Shown here: in pieces, positions 37,470-48,051 of the stretch | Layout of the letters: every line of letters begins with the position of its first letter | How positions within the stretch are numbered: position 1 is the first letter of the stretch | IMG/VR virus record: IMGVR_UViG_3300032007_000036 | Span: 32,001-96,000 of that record | Strand: one strand, 5' to 3' | From: a virus | Lineage: Duplodnaviria; Caudoviricetes | DNA length: 64,000 nt | Notes under the pieces: generated by a model | Seen by the model: the letters and a program-made list of their open reading frames with translations, nothing else | Told to the model about the DNA's origin: nothing | Database searches by the model: none | Program-made: the position numbers and the translations under genes

Positions 37470-39419
37470 TTAACGACGGCTGTTGAGCAGACGACTCATC
37501 TCACGATCCTGGATATCGCCAATCTTGAACCAGCGATCAGGTTCGTTGTGAGTGTTGAGCCAGCTACCCTCGGTGCCACGCTCCATGTCGGTGTGTGCAA
37601 CCCAAACGCGATAGTACGCACCGTTCTTCATCTTGACGATGGAGAATGTGTAGTCCTCGAATGCAATCATGCGCTCGATGGTGTCCGTACCGGTCAGCTC
37701 GTACTCATCGCCGCCAGCGCACTTCTTTAGCATGTTGACGACATGGAGGATAGACGGATTCGGAGTGCCGAACAGCATGTTCATGTATTCGCTCTGGGTA
37801 TGCTCTTCCGAGCATTTCTTCGTGTTCGGCTCTTCGCCGATCGGCTTCATGTTCGTCTGCGGCACAGCGACTTCCGTCTTGATCTCATCGAACCACTCGG
37901 TGGGCATGATTCCCTTGTTGTTCACGACCATCTCCTGCGTGATCTTGCGGTTGGCCTTGAACTTCTTGCCGGGGGCCTGAGGGAACTCAGCCTCATCACC
38001 CTCGTTGTAGATGACGATTTCTTCCATGATGTTTCCTTTCGTTAGAGATTCCTGGATTGGGCTGTCCTTCTCTTTGACCTCCATCAGGAGATCGAACAGA
38101 GTTCCGTTCTTGGTAGCCTCAGCGACCTCGACGTCAGTGAGATCCTTGGTGAGGCAGACGAACTCCTTACCAGGATATTCATCAAGAGTGACGAGTTCGC
38201 CCTTCTTGATAACGACGACAGGTTCCTTGACCTCAGCCTGATGATCAATGTCTGCCACAACAGAGGCAGGCTTCTCAGCATCAGGCTCAGCATCGCTCAT
38301 CTCGAAGGCTTCTTCCTTGAACGCTTCTGCGATTTCGCTCGCCGGTGCGTCAAAGGAATCGTTCCAGAGATCGTAGTCGACGATGTAGATCTTCTCAGGA
38401 TTGACGAAGTTCTTGAACTCGATGTCCGTGAACTCGTGAAGCACTGCCGCCTCCTCACCGTCCTTCTCAGGAACCGAGAGAATCCGGACAACGCCTTCAT
38501 CGCTGATATCGAACTTGACCCTAGTGGACATGAGGAGAACACGCTCGTTCTGAACTTCCTTAGCAGCCGGAGTGTCTGGCTTCTGTTTCTCAACAGGATT
38601 TTCCTGAGTGGTGTTCTCAGCACGCTGCACACGTTCGAACTTCTCGAGGAATGTATCGAGCATGCTCTCAGTGGAGCACTCGAACACATCGTCGATAGCG
38701 ACGTACGTTGCGGCAGAAGCAACCTTGTTCTCAGGATCCTTGAAAGACCAGACATCGACCTTCTGACCTTCCTCATCTTCCACGAAGATGGTGGCATCAC
38801 CGTCCTTGGAGATCGTCGTGACGATATCACCCTTGTGGAAGACGAGGTTCTTTGGAGGCTCATTCTCTTGCTGCTCCTCGGCAGGAGCGTCTCCAGGCTC
38901 AGGCATAGGCGGCTGTTCCTGGTTGATCGGCTTAAGATCTTCCTCCTTCACAGGTTTCGGAAGATCCTCCTCTATGCACATGTCCTGAATGAGACGAAAC
39001 ACGGGAACGTTCTTACCGTCCTTGAGCTCATTGGCGATCGTGCCAACAAGACGAGTCCAGCGCTTCAGGTTCTTCTGGTCTGTGACGACGAAGACGAAGT
39101 TGATAACCGTTCCTTTGCCTTCAGGGATAGGTTCCCTGATGACCTTGAACTGAGCCCATGAGGGATCAGGTCCGATGTCGAACGAGATCACCTCCCCCGT
39201 GAACTTGTTGGAGATGACGTTCGACGAGAACTCCTTGAGCTTGCCCATCAGTGTGGCATGCCGCTGGAGGCTCTTCATAACCTCGCTTGTGTCCACCCGC
39301 TCACCCAAACCGAGAATACGACGGAAGACGACGATAGGGCTCATCGACTTGACCGTGGACTTGTCCTTGGCGAGTGCGTCCAGGAAGACGCTAGTGAAGG
39401 TACTGTTGATGTTATTCAT
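37470..39419 (-). CDS. Large acidic multi-domain hypothetical protein
   Basis: 649 aa, overlapping the DNA polymerase stop; terminator at about 37418-37451. Confidence 0.75.
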   Translation of the reverse strand: MNNINSTFTSVFLDALAKDKSTVKSMSPIVVFRRILGLGERVDTSEVMKSLQRHATLMGKLKEFSSNVISNKFTGEVISFDIGPDPSWAQFKVIREPIPEGKGTVINFVFVVTDQKNLKRWTRLVGTIANELKDGKNVPVFRLIQDMCIEEDLPKPVKEEDLKPINQEQPPMPEPGDAPAEEQQENEPPKNLVFHKGDIVTTISKDGDATIFVEDEEGQKVDVWSFKDPENKVASAATYVAIDDVFECSTESMLDTFLEKFERVQRAENTTQENPVEKQKPDTPAAKEVQNERVLLMSTRVKFDISDEGVVRILSVPEKDGEEAAVLHEFTDIEFKNFVNPEKIYIVDYDLWNDSFDAPASEIAEAFKEEAFEMSDAEPDAEKPASVVADIDHQAEVKEPVVVIKKGELVTLDEYPGKEFVCLTKDLTDVEVAEATKNGTLFDLLMEVKEKDSPIQESLTKGNIMEEIVIYNEGDEAEFPQAPGKKFKANRKITQEMVVNNKGIMPTEWFDEIKTEVAVPQTNMKPIGEEPNTKKCSEEHTQSEYMNMLFGTPNPSILHVVNMLKKCAGGDEYELTGTDTIERMIAFEDYTFSIVKMKNGAYYRVWVAHTDMERGTEGSWLNTHNEPDRWFKIGDIQDREMSRLLNSRR

Positions 39420-41556
39420 CTTGTTGTTTCCTTGTTGTGTTTACCAAACGTGAGAGGATCCGGTGATCACCGTACACCTCGTTGAAGAGAAGTTTTGCGT
39501 TATCGTCATCGACGAACCCACAAGTTACACCGAGTTGCTGAAGGATTAGCCTAATCGGTCTCGTGTTTTCGTGAACGATGTCACGCACCATTACGAGAGG
39601 CATCAGTTCCTTGGGAATGACTGCCACCGTAGGAGCCAGAGCAATCTTGCTTGGCGGTTTCTTGTTCGCTAGGATAAATCCTTCGAACAGCTTTGCTACT
39701 TTAGGACTCGATTTCCTCAGGTCATCGAAATACTCCCTAGTCGGCTCTGCTATAGGAACAACGACGCACTTGGTAGGGATCTGGATATCGCCATACTTCC
39801 ATGCAAAGATTTCCTGCCATGCGTAGTAGTAATAGTACGGACTAGACATGGGTTTAGCATAACCGTCTTTAGATTTGATCGACTGTGGCTGACACCACGT
39901 GATACTGCCCTTAACAACTTCGCTGTAGATCTTGAGTTCCCACTCCATTGCTTTCTTGATGAGCTCGTGACCAGAGATCTTCTGGTTGAGCGAACCCAGC
40001 AGAATGTCCTGTACAATGAAGTTCTCACCGTACTGAGTTGCTGCCTTACAGATATCAGAACCCTTGAGCTGAACACCTTTTATGTCGGTGGATGGATTAG
40101 GCAGGATAACTCCTTCCTGCACAGTAATAACACCAGCGTAGGTTTTCTTGATATCTGCGAGACACATGGTCGGATAGAGGAACTCGTTCTTCATCGCCAT
40201 GTCTTTAACTCGATCTCCCTTAGCTCCGTGGCAGATGCTGTACAGCTTGAGAACATGGGCAACAGCCAGAGTTATCCAGTAGATCATGAGACAGGCGATG
40301 TGGTAAGTGCCGGGAGAGATCTTGTAGATGTCTCCGGTGTACCACTGAACCCAATCCTTGACAGTGAAGATAACCGAGTCTGTGTCGGAAATAACCGAGG
40401 AGTTGCGTTGCATGAACTTACGGTTGAGAACATCCGGGACACAGAGATCTGTGAAGATGAACGTGTCGAAGATGTCTTCCATTTTCTTCAGCTCACTCTC
40501 CACATGTCTGGCGATGTTGACGAACTTGACCGCTTTGTCAGGCATGTGTTTAGGCAGATCGTACACCTGGATCTCAGGATCTCCAGAACCCACAACGTCG
40601 TTGAATGCAACGTTGACCATGGTTACAAGAGCACCGTCGAGTTTGAACAAGTCATCTGCAACAACTCCATGTTCATCCTTGACAGAGCTCAGATCGAACA
40701 TAGCCTCTGCCCACGGACGGAAGATGCCGTCGTTGCCCATGATGATGTGCCGTAGATTCTGGTAGTACCAGAAGAATTGCACTTCCTCATCGGTCAGATG
40801 GCTTACTAGGTCGTCGACCCTTGAAAGTTCCTGTTCTTTATACCTGTGATAAATACACAACATGTCCTTGAAGAACTTGGAAAGCTCAGCCTTGCTGACG
40901 AATCTCATACCGTGATTCTGCAGACAGTTAAGAACTTTCTCAGGATCGATGCTACCTTGCAGGTGTATAGTCACATGGTTGATAAGCTGATCCAGAGAGA
41001 ACCAGCCGAAGTTTCCTCCGAGAACATGCTCGATACAGGTATTGGCATAACCGATCAAAGCTCGACCAGCACTGGTGATGCTATTGTAGTTAGCCTTGTC
41101 ATAGAAGATCGAATAAGAAGAGCCGTAATTCCCAGGCAGGGAGTTGACGCCGATTTTGATAACAGTCTGCAAGTAGTAGCAGATCAGCTGGTTGACAGTG
41201 TCGCCGATTGCTTTGTATTTGAGCATGTCTTTCTTGAACTTCTTCCTGAGCTTCAGTCGGTTCAAGATCATTTGAATCGTCTTACCAGTCTTCTTATCGT
41301 GTTGGCAGTAGAAACTGCCGTTGGGAGACAGGATGTCATCCGCATGTTTGTCAAGGTAAGTTACTAAGTCAACAGCTTTGAGCTGAGGTAGTCCCTCTGT
41401 AAGAGTATCCACCACCACAGCCGTCATCGGGCTGTAGCGGTCTTTACAGGCCAGACGGAATCGCCGATCTGCCTCCTCTTCAGAGAAACCAAACTTCCGT
41501 TGCAAATGGGTGACCATCGTGTCCCTGTACGTTTGTAATATCCTAGGACGTGACAT
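39412..41556 (-). CDS. Family B DNA polymerase, catalytic part (phiKZ gp50-like split polymerase)
   Basis: Motif B Q..IKI..NS..G, IT..GR, motif C SDTDS, KK.Y and KG; no exonuclease domain recognised. Confidence 0.88.
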   Translation of the reverse strand: MSRPRILQTYRDTMVTHLQRKFGFSEEEADRRFRLACKDRYSPMTAVVVDTLTEGLPQLKAVDLVTYLDKHADDILSPNGSFYCQHDKKTGKTIQMILNRLKLRKKFKKDMLKYKAIGDTVNQLICYYLQTVIKIGVNSLPGNYGSSYSIFYDKANYNSITSAGRALIGYANTCIEHVLGGNFGWFSLDQLINHVTIHLQGSIDPEKVLNCLQNHGMRFVSKAELSKFFKDMLCIYHRYKEQELSRVDDLVSHLTDEEVQFFWYYQNLRHIIMGNDGIFRPWAEAMFDLSSVKDEHGVVADDLFKLDGALVTMVNVAFNDVVGSGDPEIQVYDLPKHMPDKAVKFVNIARHVESELKKMEDIFDTFIFTDLCVPDVLNRKFMQRNSSVISDTDSVIFTVKDWVQWYTGDIYKISPGTYHIACLMIYWITLAVAHVLKLYSICHGAKGDRVKDMAMKNEFLYPTMCLADIKKTYAGVITVQEGVILPNPSTDIKGVQLKGSDICKAATQYGENFIVQDILLGSLNQKISGHELIKKAMEWELKIYSEVVKGSITWCQPQSIKSKDGYAKPMSSPYYYYYAWQEIFAWKYGDIQIPTKCVVVPIAEPTREYFDDLRKSSPKVAKLFEGFILANKKPPSKIALAPTVAVIPKELMPLVMVRDIVHENTRPIRLILQQLGVTCGFVDDDNAKLLFNEVYGDHRILSRLVNTTRKQQDE

Positions 41557-43437: not shown

Positions 43438-45147
43438 ATGAGTGAAAATCCCAGTGCAGTCGATCTTGACAACTCTGCAGTTGAGCAGGTGGCAGCAGAA
43501 CCTGTAACAAGTGAGACTAAAGCTGATCCAGTTGTTCCTGCACCTGGATCAGTTCTTCGTGCTGCTGGAGCCGACCCTACTGCTCAGGCTCCTGATGAAT
43601 CGGCACTTGCTGCTGCTTTGGCTGGTGAATCCGAACAACCTCTTCCCGCAGAGCAAGAGCTCGCTGATCCCGATGATGATGAGGATGATGAAGGACAGTG
43701 GAAGGATCCTGCTGCGGAGTACGTGGACGACAAGTCTCGTGCATCCATCCTCGACAAAGACCTTTACCTCAACCAGGTGACTACTGGCAACCGTGATCCT
43801 AGGAAGGTTGCTGCAGTTCTCCGCAAGTTCTATCCTACTAAGGAAGCCCAGGAGAAAGCAGCTCAGGATCCTGTGTCTCTGTACAACCTTCTCTTGATTG
43901 CATTCAAGCAGGGTTGGGGAACTAACCAGGCTGCTTCGTACAGCAGTGCTCTTACTGCCAAGCAGGAAGACGGTTCTGCAGCTATCGACCATCTCGTTGA
44001 TGTGAAATCTGTTGGTCTTGAGGACAAGACCGCCAAGCGTATCAAGCACACCGAAGTCAACCTCACAGGAGATGCTGCGTACAACGCGTTCATGTCCAGG
44101 ATGTGCGGTTATCGCAAGATCAACCTTCTCAACTCTGGATTCTGGGTATCTGTTCGTCGTCCTGTGATTGACGAACTACAGGACATGTACGACATTATCG
44201 ACATGGAGCAGAAGGAACTCGGTTATGCGATAGGTTCACACTTCGCTCTGTGCACCGACATGTACGTCAAGATGAAGTTCTGCGAACTCTGCATCAAGTT
44301 CAAGATCATCGTGGATTCCAACCTGAAGGGTCTGTACAAGGATGACAACTTCATTCGTGCTCTGTCGATCCATGACTACGATGTTCTGATGCATGGGGTT
44401 CTGTCGCTGATGTCTCGCAAAGGACTTCGTCTCAGGATGGTCTGCCCTGACTGCTTCAAGTCTTCTGTTGTGGACAACATCGATCTGTCGTCTGCACGTT
44501 ATGTGAACCTAAACCTCCTCACTCCTGCTGTTCGCGAATGGTGGAACAAACCTGGCGTGACTCCGGATGGCAAGAGAGTTCTCTACACTCTCAAGGATCT
44601 TGAGAACTACCGTGAGAACATCCTCAACTTCAAGATGACGTTTGAGACGACGATCGGTGAAGCCAAGATCAGGTTCAACATGCGTGTGCCCACCATGTAC
44701 GAGTTCATTGAGGACGGTCGTATCCTTCTTGGACGTCTGCAGGAGATCATCGAGAACAGTTCGGATACTGATACTCGTAGGTCTCAGCAGCTGATGTCCA
44801 ACATCGATGCCCACTTCGTCAAGATGATTTCTCCGTGGGTAAAGAACACAGAGGAACTTGACGATGACGGTAACGTCGTCACTCGTACAGAAGACTCCAA
44901 CACTATTCTCAGCATCCTTGATATTGCCACGCAAGAACAGACGGATGTTCCGTTTGACAAGTTCACGGAATTCCTTGGCAGAAGCAAGATCACTTACATT
45001 GGAACCTACTCTCTCGAGTGTCCTCATTGCCACGCCAAGCCGGACGTCGGCCTTAAGAATCAGTTTTATCCTCTAGAGGTGCAGACGATTTTTTTCGGCC
45101 AAATGTTCCGTCTCTTGCCTGCGGAGCTTACTCAGTCGGCACGCTGA
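43438..45147 (+). CDS. Putative tail/baseplate assembly chaperone (phiKZ gp52-like) with two CxxC motifs
   Basis: L.NSGFW...R.P, CPDC, R.PT..E and CPHC motifs; slippery T7C near the 3' end. Confidence 0.55.
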   Translation: MSENPSAVDLDNSAVEQVAAEPVTSETKADPVVPAPGSVLRAAGADPTAQAPDESALAAALAGESEQPLPAEQELADPDDDEDDEGQWKDPAAEYVDDKSRASILDKDLYLNQVTTGNRDPRKVAAVLRKFYPTKEAQEKAAQDPVSLYNLLLIAFKQGWGTNQAASYSSALTAKQEDGSAAIDHLVDVKSVGLEDKTAKRIKHTEVNLTGDAAYNAFMSRMCGYRKINLLNSGFWVSVRRPVIDELQDMYDIIDMEQKELGYAIGSHFALCTDMYVKMKFCELCIKFKIIVDSNLKGLYKDDNFIRALSIHDYDVLMHGVLSLMSRKGLRLRMVCPDCFKSSVVDNIDLSSARYVNLNLLTPAVREWWNKPGVTPDGKRVLYTLKDLENYRENILNFKMTFETTIGEAKIRFNMRVPTMYEFIEDGRILLGRLQEIIENSSDTDTRRSQQLMSNIDAHFVKMISPWVKNTEELDDDGNVVTRTEDSNTILSILDIATQEQTDVPFDKFTEFLGRSKITYIGTYSLECPHCHAKPDVGLKNQFYPLEVQTIFFGQMFRLLPAELTQSAR

Positions 45148-45611
45148 ACCAACTTCAAGCAATAGCAACGTCTGCGCTGCTTAAGAACTTCGAGCGTATC
45201 TCTAATGAACCAGATGGTAGAGTGAGAGATCTTCTCATTCGCTTCTGTAACTGCAGCGATATGTTCTGGTTCAAGAATCTAGCTACACCGTGGAAACTAC
45301 ACCAAGTTCATGCGTGGGCTCCAAAGGTTGAGGTAGAAGACCCTGTTACGCACAAGATCGTTCTGGATGATCCAATACTTCCTAACGACTGGCGTGAGAG
45401 GGTCCTCAACCTTTGTGAGTATGAGTTCACGCATCAGAACTTCGGTCTAGGGTACAAAGATCTCATGGCGATGGATGTGGCAACATTCGAGGAAATCGAA
45501 GACAGGGTCCACGCCATGGCATCCAGACGAGCTGACGAGATGAAGAAACTTTCAAAGCCGGTCGAACAAGGATCTGGTGAAGACATATTGAAAGGAATTA
45601 AACAGAAATGA
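45096..45611 (+). CDS. -1 frame ORF, probably the frameshift extension of the 43438 gene
   Basis: Frame is open from 45057; first usable start (GTG 45222) has a weak SD; FGLGYKDLMAMD..TF is a chaperone-T-like motif. Confidence 0.6.
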   Translation, partial: RPNVPSLACGAYSVGTLNQLQAIATSALLKNFERISNEPDGRVRDLLIRFCNCSDMFWFKNLATPWKLHQVHAWAPKVEVEDPVTHKIVLDDPILPNDWRERVLNLCEYEFTHQNFGLGYKDLMAMDVATFEEIEDRVHAMASRRADEMKKLSKPVEQGSGEDILKGIKQK

Positions 45612-47662
45612 CAAGGACCGAAATGCCTCCTGCCCAGAGGATGATCCTTAACAGTAATCAGGGGATTGTCAACATCATCGAGAGCGAAACTATCCGCAAG
45701 GACATGTGGAGAATCGTTGATGAGATCTTCTCCAAGCTCAAGGATCACTATGGACCGTACAGTATGTTCGCTGGTCTTGACGACAACACACCTTTGTCTG
45801 ACTCTGTGTTCACAAAGGACGGTGCAAATATTGTCAAGAACATCAGCTACTCCAGTCCTCTTGAAGACTGGATGAGGAGAGCGATCCTGTACATCGGTAC
45901 GAACATCGAGAAGTCTGCTGGAGACGGAACCACGTCTTCGATGATGTTCGCATGCTCTATGTTGAAGCACATGAACTCCAGCATAGATGCACTCAAACCA
46001 ATCAACTACTCGCAGTTCAGGGATGCCTGGGCTGAGTTCGTCAAGGAAGTTGAAGAGCGTACCAAGAAATACATCTTCTCTGCCAAGAACTCCAATGGTG
46101 AGTACGATCCCAAGAAGGTAAGGGATATTGTATACATGCAGGCTTACACGTCATCCCACGGTGACAAGGAGCTTGCTGAGGCGGTAGCAACTATCTTCGA
46201 GGATACTCCTTCTCACATGTGGGCGAAGATGGGATTTGGTCGCCGTCGCTATGAATCCAAGAAACGGTTCGAGGTTATCGAGCAGGAACAGCAGTACCTG
46301 ATGGAAACCGAGATCATGTCCAAGACTGTGTTCAACAAGGACATGGGTCGTTACTTGGAGTACGAGAATGCAACTCTCATCGTCATAAACGGATCGATCA
46401 GTATAGACTCTGTCTGGTGGCCGAAGATCAAGGAAGTTCTCGAGAAGTCGACAAAAGAAAAACCTGCAGTTATTCTGTGCTACAACGACTTCGACAATGC
46501 GACGTTCGCTGAACTCATGAGGATGACTTCCGTCAACACGGAAGAGGAGCATTACTGTTTCGCAGTGTTCGGTAACAAACCGGTTCACCCGACTGTTAAC
46601 GACTTCACTGTCATTCAGGCTATCGCTGGTGCCAATGTCCTTGAGTACACCAACGGTGAGTTCACCGAGAAGCCGATGTTCATTGACAACGTGTACGTCA
46701 AGTACGAGTTCAAGAGACTTGAGCTTGGTAACTTGTACGATGATCCTCGTCCTAAAGCAAGGATGATTCGTGAACGTCCGTTCTACAATGATCCGGCTAA
46801 AGCTTTCTACCGTGAGTTTGCTGACACCATTCAGAAGTTCATCGAGTCTTACGAGATGGCTGACCTTGATGCTCTCAAGCAGAAGGAGCTCAGTAACCAC
46901 AAGGAGATGTACAACAGGCTCCGTTACGACAAGACTATAACGCTGATCATTGGTGGCAACACCTTCGATAACCTTGCGATGTTTGATGTCGTTGACGATG
47001 TCATCCGTGCTTCTATCCGTACGCTCGAGAATGGAGCAGTCCTGTCTAACAACAAGACTACCTATCGGGTTATGGAGGAGATGCTGGAAGACTACTCCAA
47101 GAAGGAGGAGCTTACTCCGCAGGAGAGGACTATCCGTTGGTTCGCTGCCAACACTAAAGCTGCATTCGAAGAGTTCGCTGCTGTTGTGATGGAACAGCTG
47201 TATCCTCATGGTACTCAGGGAGTTAGTGGTGCTGTACCAGCATCGCTCTTCTCTCGTCTCGGTGGGTTCTTCAGTACTGACATTGATCCTATCACTGGAC
47301 TTCCCAAGAACAACTACGAATCTTGCTGCATGAGTGAATTCTTCATGTCTGACAAGGTGAAGTATGCGTTCAGCGAGAAGGACAAACGCGATTTCTGCGA
47401 CTGGTGGTTCCACCATGCTGTTGACTTGCTCAAGTACGACAGCAAGCAGTTGTGGGATTGTCAGGACTGGCAGAACGCTGTTGATGTCCGTGATCCGATG
47501 GCTAACCTTGAGTTCGGTCCCTTCTGGTTCATCATACAGCCGGCCAACGCCGACATTGTTATGCTAGACAGATTCGGCGAGATCGCTCTTAAGTTCATCC
47601 TTACCGAGCGCATCATCGTTAAAGATGCAGCATACATCAACAAGAAGGGCTCTAAGAAATGA
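45608..47662 (+). CDS. groEL: Phage chaperonin (GroEL/Cpn60-like)
   Basis: YGP, TKDGANI, GDGTT ATP-binding loop, and IGG...VDD.IRA (D398 equivalent); no GGM tail. Confidence 0.88.
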   Translation: MTRTEMPPAQRMILNSNQGIVNIIESETIRKDMWRIVDEIFSKLKDHYGPYSMFAGLDDNTPLSDSVFTKDGANIVKNISYSSPLEDWMRRAILYIGTNIEKSAGDGTTSSMMFACSMLKHMNSSIDALKPINYSQFRDAWAEFVKEVEERTKKYIFSAKNSNGEYDPKKVRDIVYMQAYTSSHGDKELAEAVATIFEDTPSHMWAKMGFGRRRYESKKRFEVIEQEQQYLMETEIMSKTVFNKDMGRYLEYENATLIVINGSISIDSVWWPKIKEVLEKSTKEKPAVILCYNDFDNATFAELMRMTSVNTEEEHYCFAVFGNKPVHPTVNDFTVIQAIAGANVLEYTNGEFTEKPMFIDNVYVKYEFKRLELGNLYDDPRPKARMIRERPFYNDPAKAFYREFADTIQKFIESYEMADLDALKQKELSNHKEMYNRLRYDKTITLIIGGNTFDNLAMFDVVDDVIRASIRTLENGAVLSNNKTTYRVMEEMLEDYSKKEELTPQERTIRWFAANTKAAFEEFAAVVMEQLYPHGTQGVSGAVPASLFSRLGGFFSTDIDPITGLPKNNYESCCMSEFFMSDKVKYAFSEKDKRDFCDWWFHHAVDLLKYDSKQLWDCQDWQNAVDVRDPMANLEFGPFWFIIQPANADIVMLDRFGEIALKFILTERIIVKDAAYINKKGSKK

Positions 47663-48051
47663 TTACCGCACTCAACAACGTACAGCTCAACATCAACATT
47701 GAAGTCAAGTTCACCCTCAAGAGCTTGGTGGATAAGCAGGTGTGGAGAGGTCGTATCATCGGCGTCTGCGGCTTTGATGTCGCGATGCAGTACAACGATG
47801 TTGTCGCTACTCACAACAACATGCCCGCAGCAGTTGCCAAACAGGAACCTGTGTCTCTTACATACATCCTGGTCAAGTGCACTGATGGTCAGATTAGACC
47901 GTTCGCTACTGCGTGGATCAATGAGTCTGAGTTCGAGCGCACAGACAACGTTACGGATGTGACTGTTATCATCCACAACGTGACAGACACGTCCAAGGCA
48001 AAGATACTCACTGAGATCCGTGATCTCGGATTCGAGGTTACTGTGGTGTAA
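47659..48051 (+). CDS. Small beta-rich (SH3-like) jumbo-phage protein
   Basis: 130 aa; ATGA overlap with the chaperonin stop. Confidence 0.65.
   Translation: MITALNNVQLNINIEVKFTLKSLVDKQVWRGRIIGVCGFDVAMQYNDVVATHNNMPAAVAKQEPVSLTYILVKCTDGQIRPFATAWINESEFERTDNVTDVTVIIHNVTDTSKAKILTEIRDLGFEVTVV

Follow-up and report, generated by a model that had tools for sequence, protein, structure and literature searches.

A candidate programmed -1 ribosomal frameshift in the gp77 gene family of phiKZ-like jumbo phages

In phages lambda (G/GT) and P2 (E/E+E'), the rate of a -1 frameshift sets the ratio of the two forms of a tail assembly chaperone. In the passages of PMC9024508 and PMC3091744 that cite Xu, Hendrix and Duda (2004), this -1 frameshift is described as conserved in the tail assembly chaperones of long-tailed phages, and P2 E/E+E' is noted to slip on TTTTTTG without a 3' structure (PMC3091744). 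A comparable layout is described here for a gene (43438-45147, plus strand) of the virus record IMGVR_UViG_3300032007_000036 (Duplodnaviria; Caudoviricetes), analysed over a stretch of 64,000 nucleotides (nt), hereafter the window, that corresponds to positions 32001-96000 of the 131,442-bp record. The gene is the counterpart of phiKZ gp77 in an uncultured phiKZ-like jumbo phage and encodes a protein of 569 amino acids (aa). Comparison of related loci makes it very likely that a real recoding site is present near the 3' end of the gene, from which a second, 724-aa product would be made.

The features that the gp77-family locus shares with lambda G/GT and P2 E/E+E' include: (i) a start common to the two forms, (ii) a heptamer for a -1 shift located towards the 3' end of the short open reading frame (ORF), and (iii) a new C-terminal domain in the long form, which is a predicted product in the gp77 family. 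The TTTTTTG of P2 is very close to the TTTTTTC/T of the jumbo phage family. The proteins differ in scale, as the short form is 470-615 aa in the jumbo phage family compared to about 90-140 aa in lambda and P2.

Slip site and -1 reading frame

Near the 3' end of the frame-0 gene, the codons read ACG ATT TTT TTC and place a slippery heptamer, T TTT TTC (45090-45096, plus strand), in the correct X XXY YYZ phase on the codons of F552 and F553; the associated run of seven T residues (T7) spans 45089-45095. The -1 frame is preceded by a TAA (45054-45056), is open from 45057 and closes at a TGA (45609-45611), with a GTG at 45222 (43 codons past the slip) as its earliest ATG, GTG or TTG. The -1 extension (45096-45611, plus strand) consists of 171 codons and the TGA, is accessible only via a shift, and includes FGLGYKDLMAMD..TF. 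The predicted long form has 553 shared and 171 new residues (724 aa), with ..VQTIFF/RPNVPS.. at the junction. A preliminary description of the locus, made from the sequence alone, had located the heptamer and its phase, the limits of the -1 ORF, GTG 45222, an upstream GAGGT, a downstream hairpin and the extension; each of these positions is confirmed.

In the proposed mechanism, most ribosomes would terminate at the frame-0 stop (TGA, 45145-45147) and release the 569-aa protein, and a fraction would move back by one base at 45090-45096. The P-site tRNA-Phe would re-pair from UUU to UUU and the A-site tRNA-Phe from UUC to UUU, a -1 move after which T TTT TTY is expected to allow re-pairing of both Phe tRNAs. 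The shifted ribosomes would then read the -1 frame to 45611 to form a 724-aa protein with a 171-residue, mostly helical domain. This slip by a fraction of ribosomes is considered the best explanation for the locus, with a probability of about 0.8 based on sequence comparison. The shift is presumably ribosomal and partial, and both forms are presumably needed.

The comparison includes 29 distinct loci from IMG/VR and metagenome contigs, named phage records and phiKZ. The phage records are those of Erwinia phages AH06 and Desertfox, Bacillus phage AgentSmith, Salmonella phage SPLA10, Klebsiella phages KpLz-2_45 and FBKp24, Vibrio phage pir03 and Pseudomonas phage DT01. The phiKZ locus was found by profile search and is PHIKZ077 (gp77), with its T run at 71939-71945 of NC_004629. 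Protein identity among the loci extends from 93% down to about 17%, and Agricanvirus phages are included. The profile of the window-family protein has no match in the phiEaH2, SPN3US and EL records; a 686-aa protein of phiEaH2, which may or may not be a fused form, is a fold match in BFVD. Relatives of the pir03 protein were not found in IMG/VR.

The two Phe codons are invariant and read TTT TTY in frame 0 at all 29 loci; loss of the slippery site in homologs, which the preliminary description had named as evidence against a frameshift, is not seen. The codon ahead of Phe-Phe ends in T at 27 of the 29 loci (canonical X XXY YYZ; T TTT TTY/A), and the remaining two have G TTT TTT. Two IMG/VR contigs of 320-325 kb (L037 and L038) have ACG TTT TTT ACG near position 2560, with six T's and an intact -1 ORF, a variant that points to slippage of a single tRNA or else to a tolerated mismatch in the P site. 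The -1 ORF downstream of the site is 144-173 codons in the family, with the exception of one contig (L042) that ends after 48 codons. At 18 of 22 loci, the -1 frame opens just 6-51 nt 5' of the site with no start codon between. The -1 peptide is conserved from the first post-slip codon (FF-x-P...), ahead of any start codon. Comparison of the loci shows family-wide conservation of the slip site and its phase, and of the -1 ORF together with its peptide. The programmed -1 shift to 569- and 724-aa products suggested in the preliminary description is supported by a slippery site and -1 overlap at every locus, phiKZ included.

Homopolymers such as T7 are error-prone on some sequencing platforms, and the window is from a metagenome-derived virus record; a single 724-aa gene misread at the run, or a gene that broke recently, could in principle give the same picture. 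However, the same break is present in independently sequenced cultured isolates and in unrelated metagenomes, and the frame-0 tails past the site differ in length (5-44 codons). An intact fused gene was also not found. Among 1.84 billion representative proteins, a profile search with the extension retrieves 199 clusters at 50% identity, none of which has the fused form of ~700 aa. The real matches are ORFs of 62-192 aa that begin at varying positions of the profile and look like truncated gene calls in which the first available start was taken. P0155 (789 aa) was considered as a possible fused form and is spurious by hhalign. The agreement of independent isolates and metagenomes rules out the homopolymer error that had been raised as an alternative, and artefact or decay as a whole is given a negligible probability.

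The genome records present the -1 ORF differently. A separate small coding sequence (CDS) in the -1 frame is annotated in phiKZ (gp076.4) and in seven other phage records (Desertfox gp268, AgentSmith gene 12, SPLA10 gene 12, KpLz-2_45 gene 191, FBKp24 gene 030, pir03 QNI21075 and DT01 gene 172). These annotations, together with the GTG at 45222 in the window, would be consistent with two separate genes, the second expressed from an internal start or by reinitiation past the frame-0 stop. By contrast, the earliest ATG, GTG or TTG of the -1 ORF is found anywhere from 3 to 88 codons past the slip, with positions that are inconsistent between loci, and conservation of the peptide begins at the slip site itself, well 5' of those starts. 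Initiation at a position like 45222 was proposed earlier as an alternative to the shift; as a general explanation it is contradicted because the position of the first start codon varies between loci.

The nucleotide changes and the annotated gaps bear on the same question. When the window is compared with its 93% relative, the 74 nt from the frame-0 stop to GTG 45222 show substitutions distributed 6/2/9 over -1-frame codon positions 1/2/3, compared to 12/5/36 after the GTG. Both patterns are coding-like; thus, the 74 nt ahead of the GTG evolve as coding sequence, against an internal start at this codon. In phiKZ, the -1 extension of gp77 is 165 codons (NC_004629 71442-71945, minus strand), and PHIKZ076.4 (80 aa) corresponds to the last 80 of these codons, with a shared stop. 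The 218-nt 'intergenic' gap before gp076.4 is open and conserved in the -1 frame, as are the annotation 'gaps' of 78-218 nt across the records. In Desertfox, gp268 and gp269 overlap by 136 nt in the -1 frame. Expression of the -1 ORF as a separate gene is, on these grounds, rated as very improbable.

A frameshift is not annotated in any of the genome records examined, phiKZ among them, and literature searches found no described frameshift at the gp77 site of phiKZ-like phages, which fits the earlier impression that the shift had not been described for the group. Neither phiKZ gp77 nor a frameshift is mentioned in the structural atlas of the phiKZ virion or in the structure paper of Goslar. The absence of gp77 from the virion atlas fits a non-virion factor, yet is mere absence of evidence.

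Candidate stimulators and the mode of slippage

The frameshift cassettes of E. coli dnaX and IS911 have a heptamer, an upstream Shine-Dalgarno (SD) sequence and a 3' hairpin, and similar elements flank the heptamer of the window. An SD-like GAGGTG (45076-45081, plus strand; GAGGT at 45076-45080) is 8-9 nt 5' of the heptamer, and a hairpin (45105-45127, plus strand) is 8 nt 3' of it. The hairpin arms, GTTCCG (45105-45110) and CGGAGC (45122-45127), form 6 bp with one G.U pair and an 11-nt loop. Unlike the dnaX and IS911 elements, neither the SD-like motif nor the hairpin is conserved across the jumbo phage family. The consequence of the shift also differs, in that the dnaX shift truncates the protein and the gp77-family shift extends it.

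The SD-like motif is found only in the clade of the window. Its letters correspond to Glu-Val codons, and it is found neither at loci with Asp-Val in this place nor in other genera; it is a possible stimulator in this one clade. The hairpin of the window has a predicted stability of -8.6 kcal/mol, a value that 13% of control windows in the same region equal and that is not significant, and may act as a weak stimulator. Hairpins located 6-8 nt past the site recur in the TTTTTTC clade with differing arms (GTTCCG/CGGAGC, CCTTCCA/TGGAAGG, TCCTGTC/GGCAGGA and TCCTGCCG/CGGCAGGG). The changes between arms look compensatory when judged by eye, and the 3' arm is displaced by one codon in two loci. A comparable hairpin is absent in the phiKZ, Agricanvirus, Klebsiella and Bacillus phages.

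On a family-wide scale, the lack of a shared stimulator counts against a programmed ribosomal shift. A 3' stimulatory structure common to the family was considered and rejected, as the median 3' fold of 22 loci is no stabler than controls, and no conserved stimulatory element was found across the family. The dnaX/IS911-style stimulators of the preliminary description, thus, do not hold as general features: the SD-like motif and the hairpin are specific to clades, and the hairpin is statistically modest.

The missing stimulator is among the points in favour of transcriptional slippage, in which a phage or host RNA polymerase would add one U on the T run such that the 724-aa protein is made by normal translation. 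The site is a homopolymer, T7 in the window and T7-T9 in most loci. The T7 run is the sole homopolymer of at least 7 nt in the 64-kb window, and the 131,442-bp record has three such runs compared to ~25 expected from base composition; thus, runs of at least 7 nt are otherwise avoided in this genome. The depletion may be the result of selection against slippage or a composition effect. phiKZ-like phages also have RNA polymerases of their own, which may slip on such runs. As a separate observation on base runs, no C or G run of at least 6 nt is present in the record.

The length of the T run is, however, not conserved. Three loci have T6 only, namely pir03 (TAT TTT TTC), L037 and L038, and all three retain the -1 ORF. 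Conservation applies instead to the phase of the run (29 of 29 loci) and the canonical X XXY YYZ heptamer (27 of 29), neither of which is needed by transcription, although the conserved Phe-Phe residues could account in part for the fixed phase. Ribosomal slippage is favoured because of the T6 loci, and transcriptional slippage is rated lower, as an unlikely alternative, because run length is not conserved and the phase and heptamer are.

Protein products and their likeness to tail and hub chaperones

The short form is a member of the phiKZ gp77 family (phrog_4585; E 2e-32 by PHROG profile comparison). The 569-aa protein has no Pfam family (Pfam search, E 0.1), and megablast of the locus DNA against phage records gives no match. 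All 15 database homologs of the 569-aa protein are 564-592 aa and, thus, share a conserved frame-0 stop. Within the protein, an acidic, disordered N-terminal segment of ~120 residues precedes a folded core at residues ~210-520. The AF2 model of the protein is moderate, with a predicted local distance difference test (pLDDT) score of 58, and is better in the core (210-520).

Two cysteine pairs are found in the short form. The first, C336-x2-C339 (44443-44454, plus strand), is invariant or nearly so in the family, is aligned by hhalign with the CxxC of T4 gp51, and is presumed to be half of a zinc site. The second, C528-x2-C531 (45019-45030, plus strand), is part of an ECPHCHAKP motif, is invariant and resides ~20 residues ahead of the Phe-Phe of the slip site.

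The extension has a conserved core of DRVLxLCExExTHxxFGLxxxDLMxLDxxTFxxIExRVH. Its model (pLDDT 71) shows helices and a small hairpin. The extension matches no Pfam or PHROG family and, when used alone in tblastn, gives no match.

The likeness of the pair to lambda G/GT is one of expression logic, not of family membership. No significant sequence or fold match is found to lambda G, P2 E or the HK97 chaperone. While the HK97 chaperone 2ob9 is the top Foldseek row for the window protein, the match has an E value of 0.72 and a template modelling (TM) score of 0.33, and a GpE cluster of the ESM Atlas scores 0.86 against the extension, below the lead threshold. A presumed role in tail assembly outside of the virion is, nonetheless, common to the lambda and P2 chaperones and the jumbo phage pair.

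A closer likeness is noted to T4 gp26 and gp51, which are listed as hub assembly chaperones (PMC3004832, Leiman et al. 2010). In a Foldseek search of predicted viral structures, jumbo phage homologs rank first for the core, and the next matches (E 7e-4 to 5e-2; target TM 0.4-0.6) are models named 'baseplate hub subunit gp26 / T4-like hub assembly protein'. Independently, eight of the 30 closest clusters in the ESM Atlas have PF12322 (score 0.92). PF12322 matches both T4 gp26 (215 bits) and gp51 (178 bits), which are, thus, paralogs; gp51 homologs have an additional C-terminal domain (PF28602).

The T4 proteins also share the general layout of the jumbo phage pair. T4 gp26, like the window family, has two cysteine pairs and an FF-x-L(L) that ends the short form (C82/C84, C187/C190 of CPECGK and FFELL-stop in gp26; C336/C339, C528/C531 and F552-F553 in the window), and the long form in both systems adds a C-terminal domain after the FF-x-L(L) motif. 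By contrast, T4 uses two separate genes for gp26 (208 aa) and gp51 (249 aa), with gp51 transcribed divergently from gp26 (NC_000866 115811-117081), where the jumbo phage family uses one frameshifted gene. The jumbo phage proteins are 2-3 times larger than those of T4 and have a long, disordered, acidic N-terminus, and the extension is 145-173 aa compared to about 45. The pair may, thus, be a non-virion chaperone of tail or baseplate-hub assembly, with the short form an enlarged counterpart of gp26 and the long form of gp51, a proposal that is given even odds.

Several results weigh against this assignment. The end of T4 gene 26 has neither a slippery run nor a -1 ORF. PF12322 has no match in the genome of the window, phiKZ or Desertfox even at an E value of 10. 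By hhalign, the family alignment matches the gp26 family at a probability of 0.6% and the gp51 family weakly, at 17.8% over 77 columns with a consistent order of CxxC, strand-Pro and helix; the extension profile is placed on residues 208-234 of gp51, again weakly (2.9%). Among solved structures, which include none of gp26 or gp51, no significant Foldseek or VIA-align match is found, only generic helical ones (Z <=6.4), and profiles of the short form and extension retrieve nothing from PDB sequences. Homology to gp26 and gp51 is, thus, suggested by predicted fold only and not by sequence profile, and family membership is unproven.

The location of the gene is a further point on this side. The chaperone genes of lambda and P2 are between the tube and tape-measure genes, unlike the gene of the window, which is flanked by a DNA polymerase gene, two genes without known function and a GroEL-like gene, with no tube, sheath or tape-measure gene adjacent. 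The DNA polymerase gene (39412-41556, minus strand; phrog_2927, E 9e-110) is ~1.9 kb upstream and places the chaperone-like gene among replication genes rather than in a tail module.

The preliminary description had suggested a G/GT-type chaperone pair and a structure comparison with T4 gp26 and gp51, and had noted that no tape-measure gene is adjacent. The last point is borne out. The G/GT comparison stands for the expression logic of the pair. Membership of the pair in the lambda G/GT or P2 E families is not detectable, and its gene is not located between tube and tape-measure genes. The T4 comparison gives a likeness in predicted fold without a significant match in sequence profile or solved structure.

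A two-part layout is also observed in Leptospira phage LE4, a small myovirus. In BFVD, the LE4 protein A0A343LED6 (290 aa, gp26-like) matches the core and the adjacent A0A343LED7 (71 aa) matches the extension. The LE4 pair suggests, from these predicted models, that the two-part layout, and perhaps the shift, may extend beyond jumbo phages.

Gene neighbourhood and meaning for phiKZ-like phages

The gp77-family gene of the window is followed by a gene for a GroEL-like chaperonin of 684 aa (45608-47662, plus strand; Pfam Cpn60_TCP1, phrog_5725). The ATG of the chaperonin gene overlaps the TGA of the -1 ORF as ATGA (45608-45611); thus, ribosomes that finish the long form could couple into the chaperonin gene. 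Neither phiKZ nor any other phage examined has this GroEL-like neighbour. A 130-aa gene of phrog_3235 (47659-48051, plus strand), to which no function is assigned, overlaps the chaperonin stop by 4 nt. In phiKZ, gp77 is flanked by gp78 and small ORFs.

Nucleus-forming phages are studied mainly in phiKZ and its relatives, which are also candidates for phage therapy; to our knowledge, the tail-assembly factors of the group are not known. The gp77 family is tentatively viewed, at somewhat less than even odds, as the missing tail assembly chaperone of the phiKZ-like jumbo phages and as the frameshifting form of a module that became divided between genes 26 and 51 in T4. If so, the balance of short to long form needed for the initiation complex of hub, tape measure and tube would be set by how often ribosomes slip on T TTT TTY, and recoding would belong to the core of the whole phiKZ-like group (nucleus-forming and allied phages) as an essential feature that has so far gone unannotated. 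Each such genome would gain one protein, of about 650-810 residues, from the site, which would also correct a recurring annotation error in which a truncated small ORF follows an apparent intergenic gap (e.g., phiKZ gp076.4) and would supply a specific candidate for the chaperone of tail or hub assembly. The link of G/GT frameshift logic to gp26 and gp51 suggests that the two genes of T4 may descend from, or replace, a frameshifted single gene.

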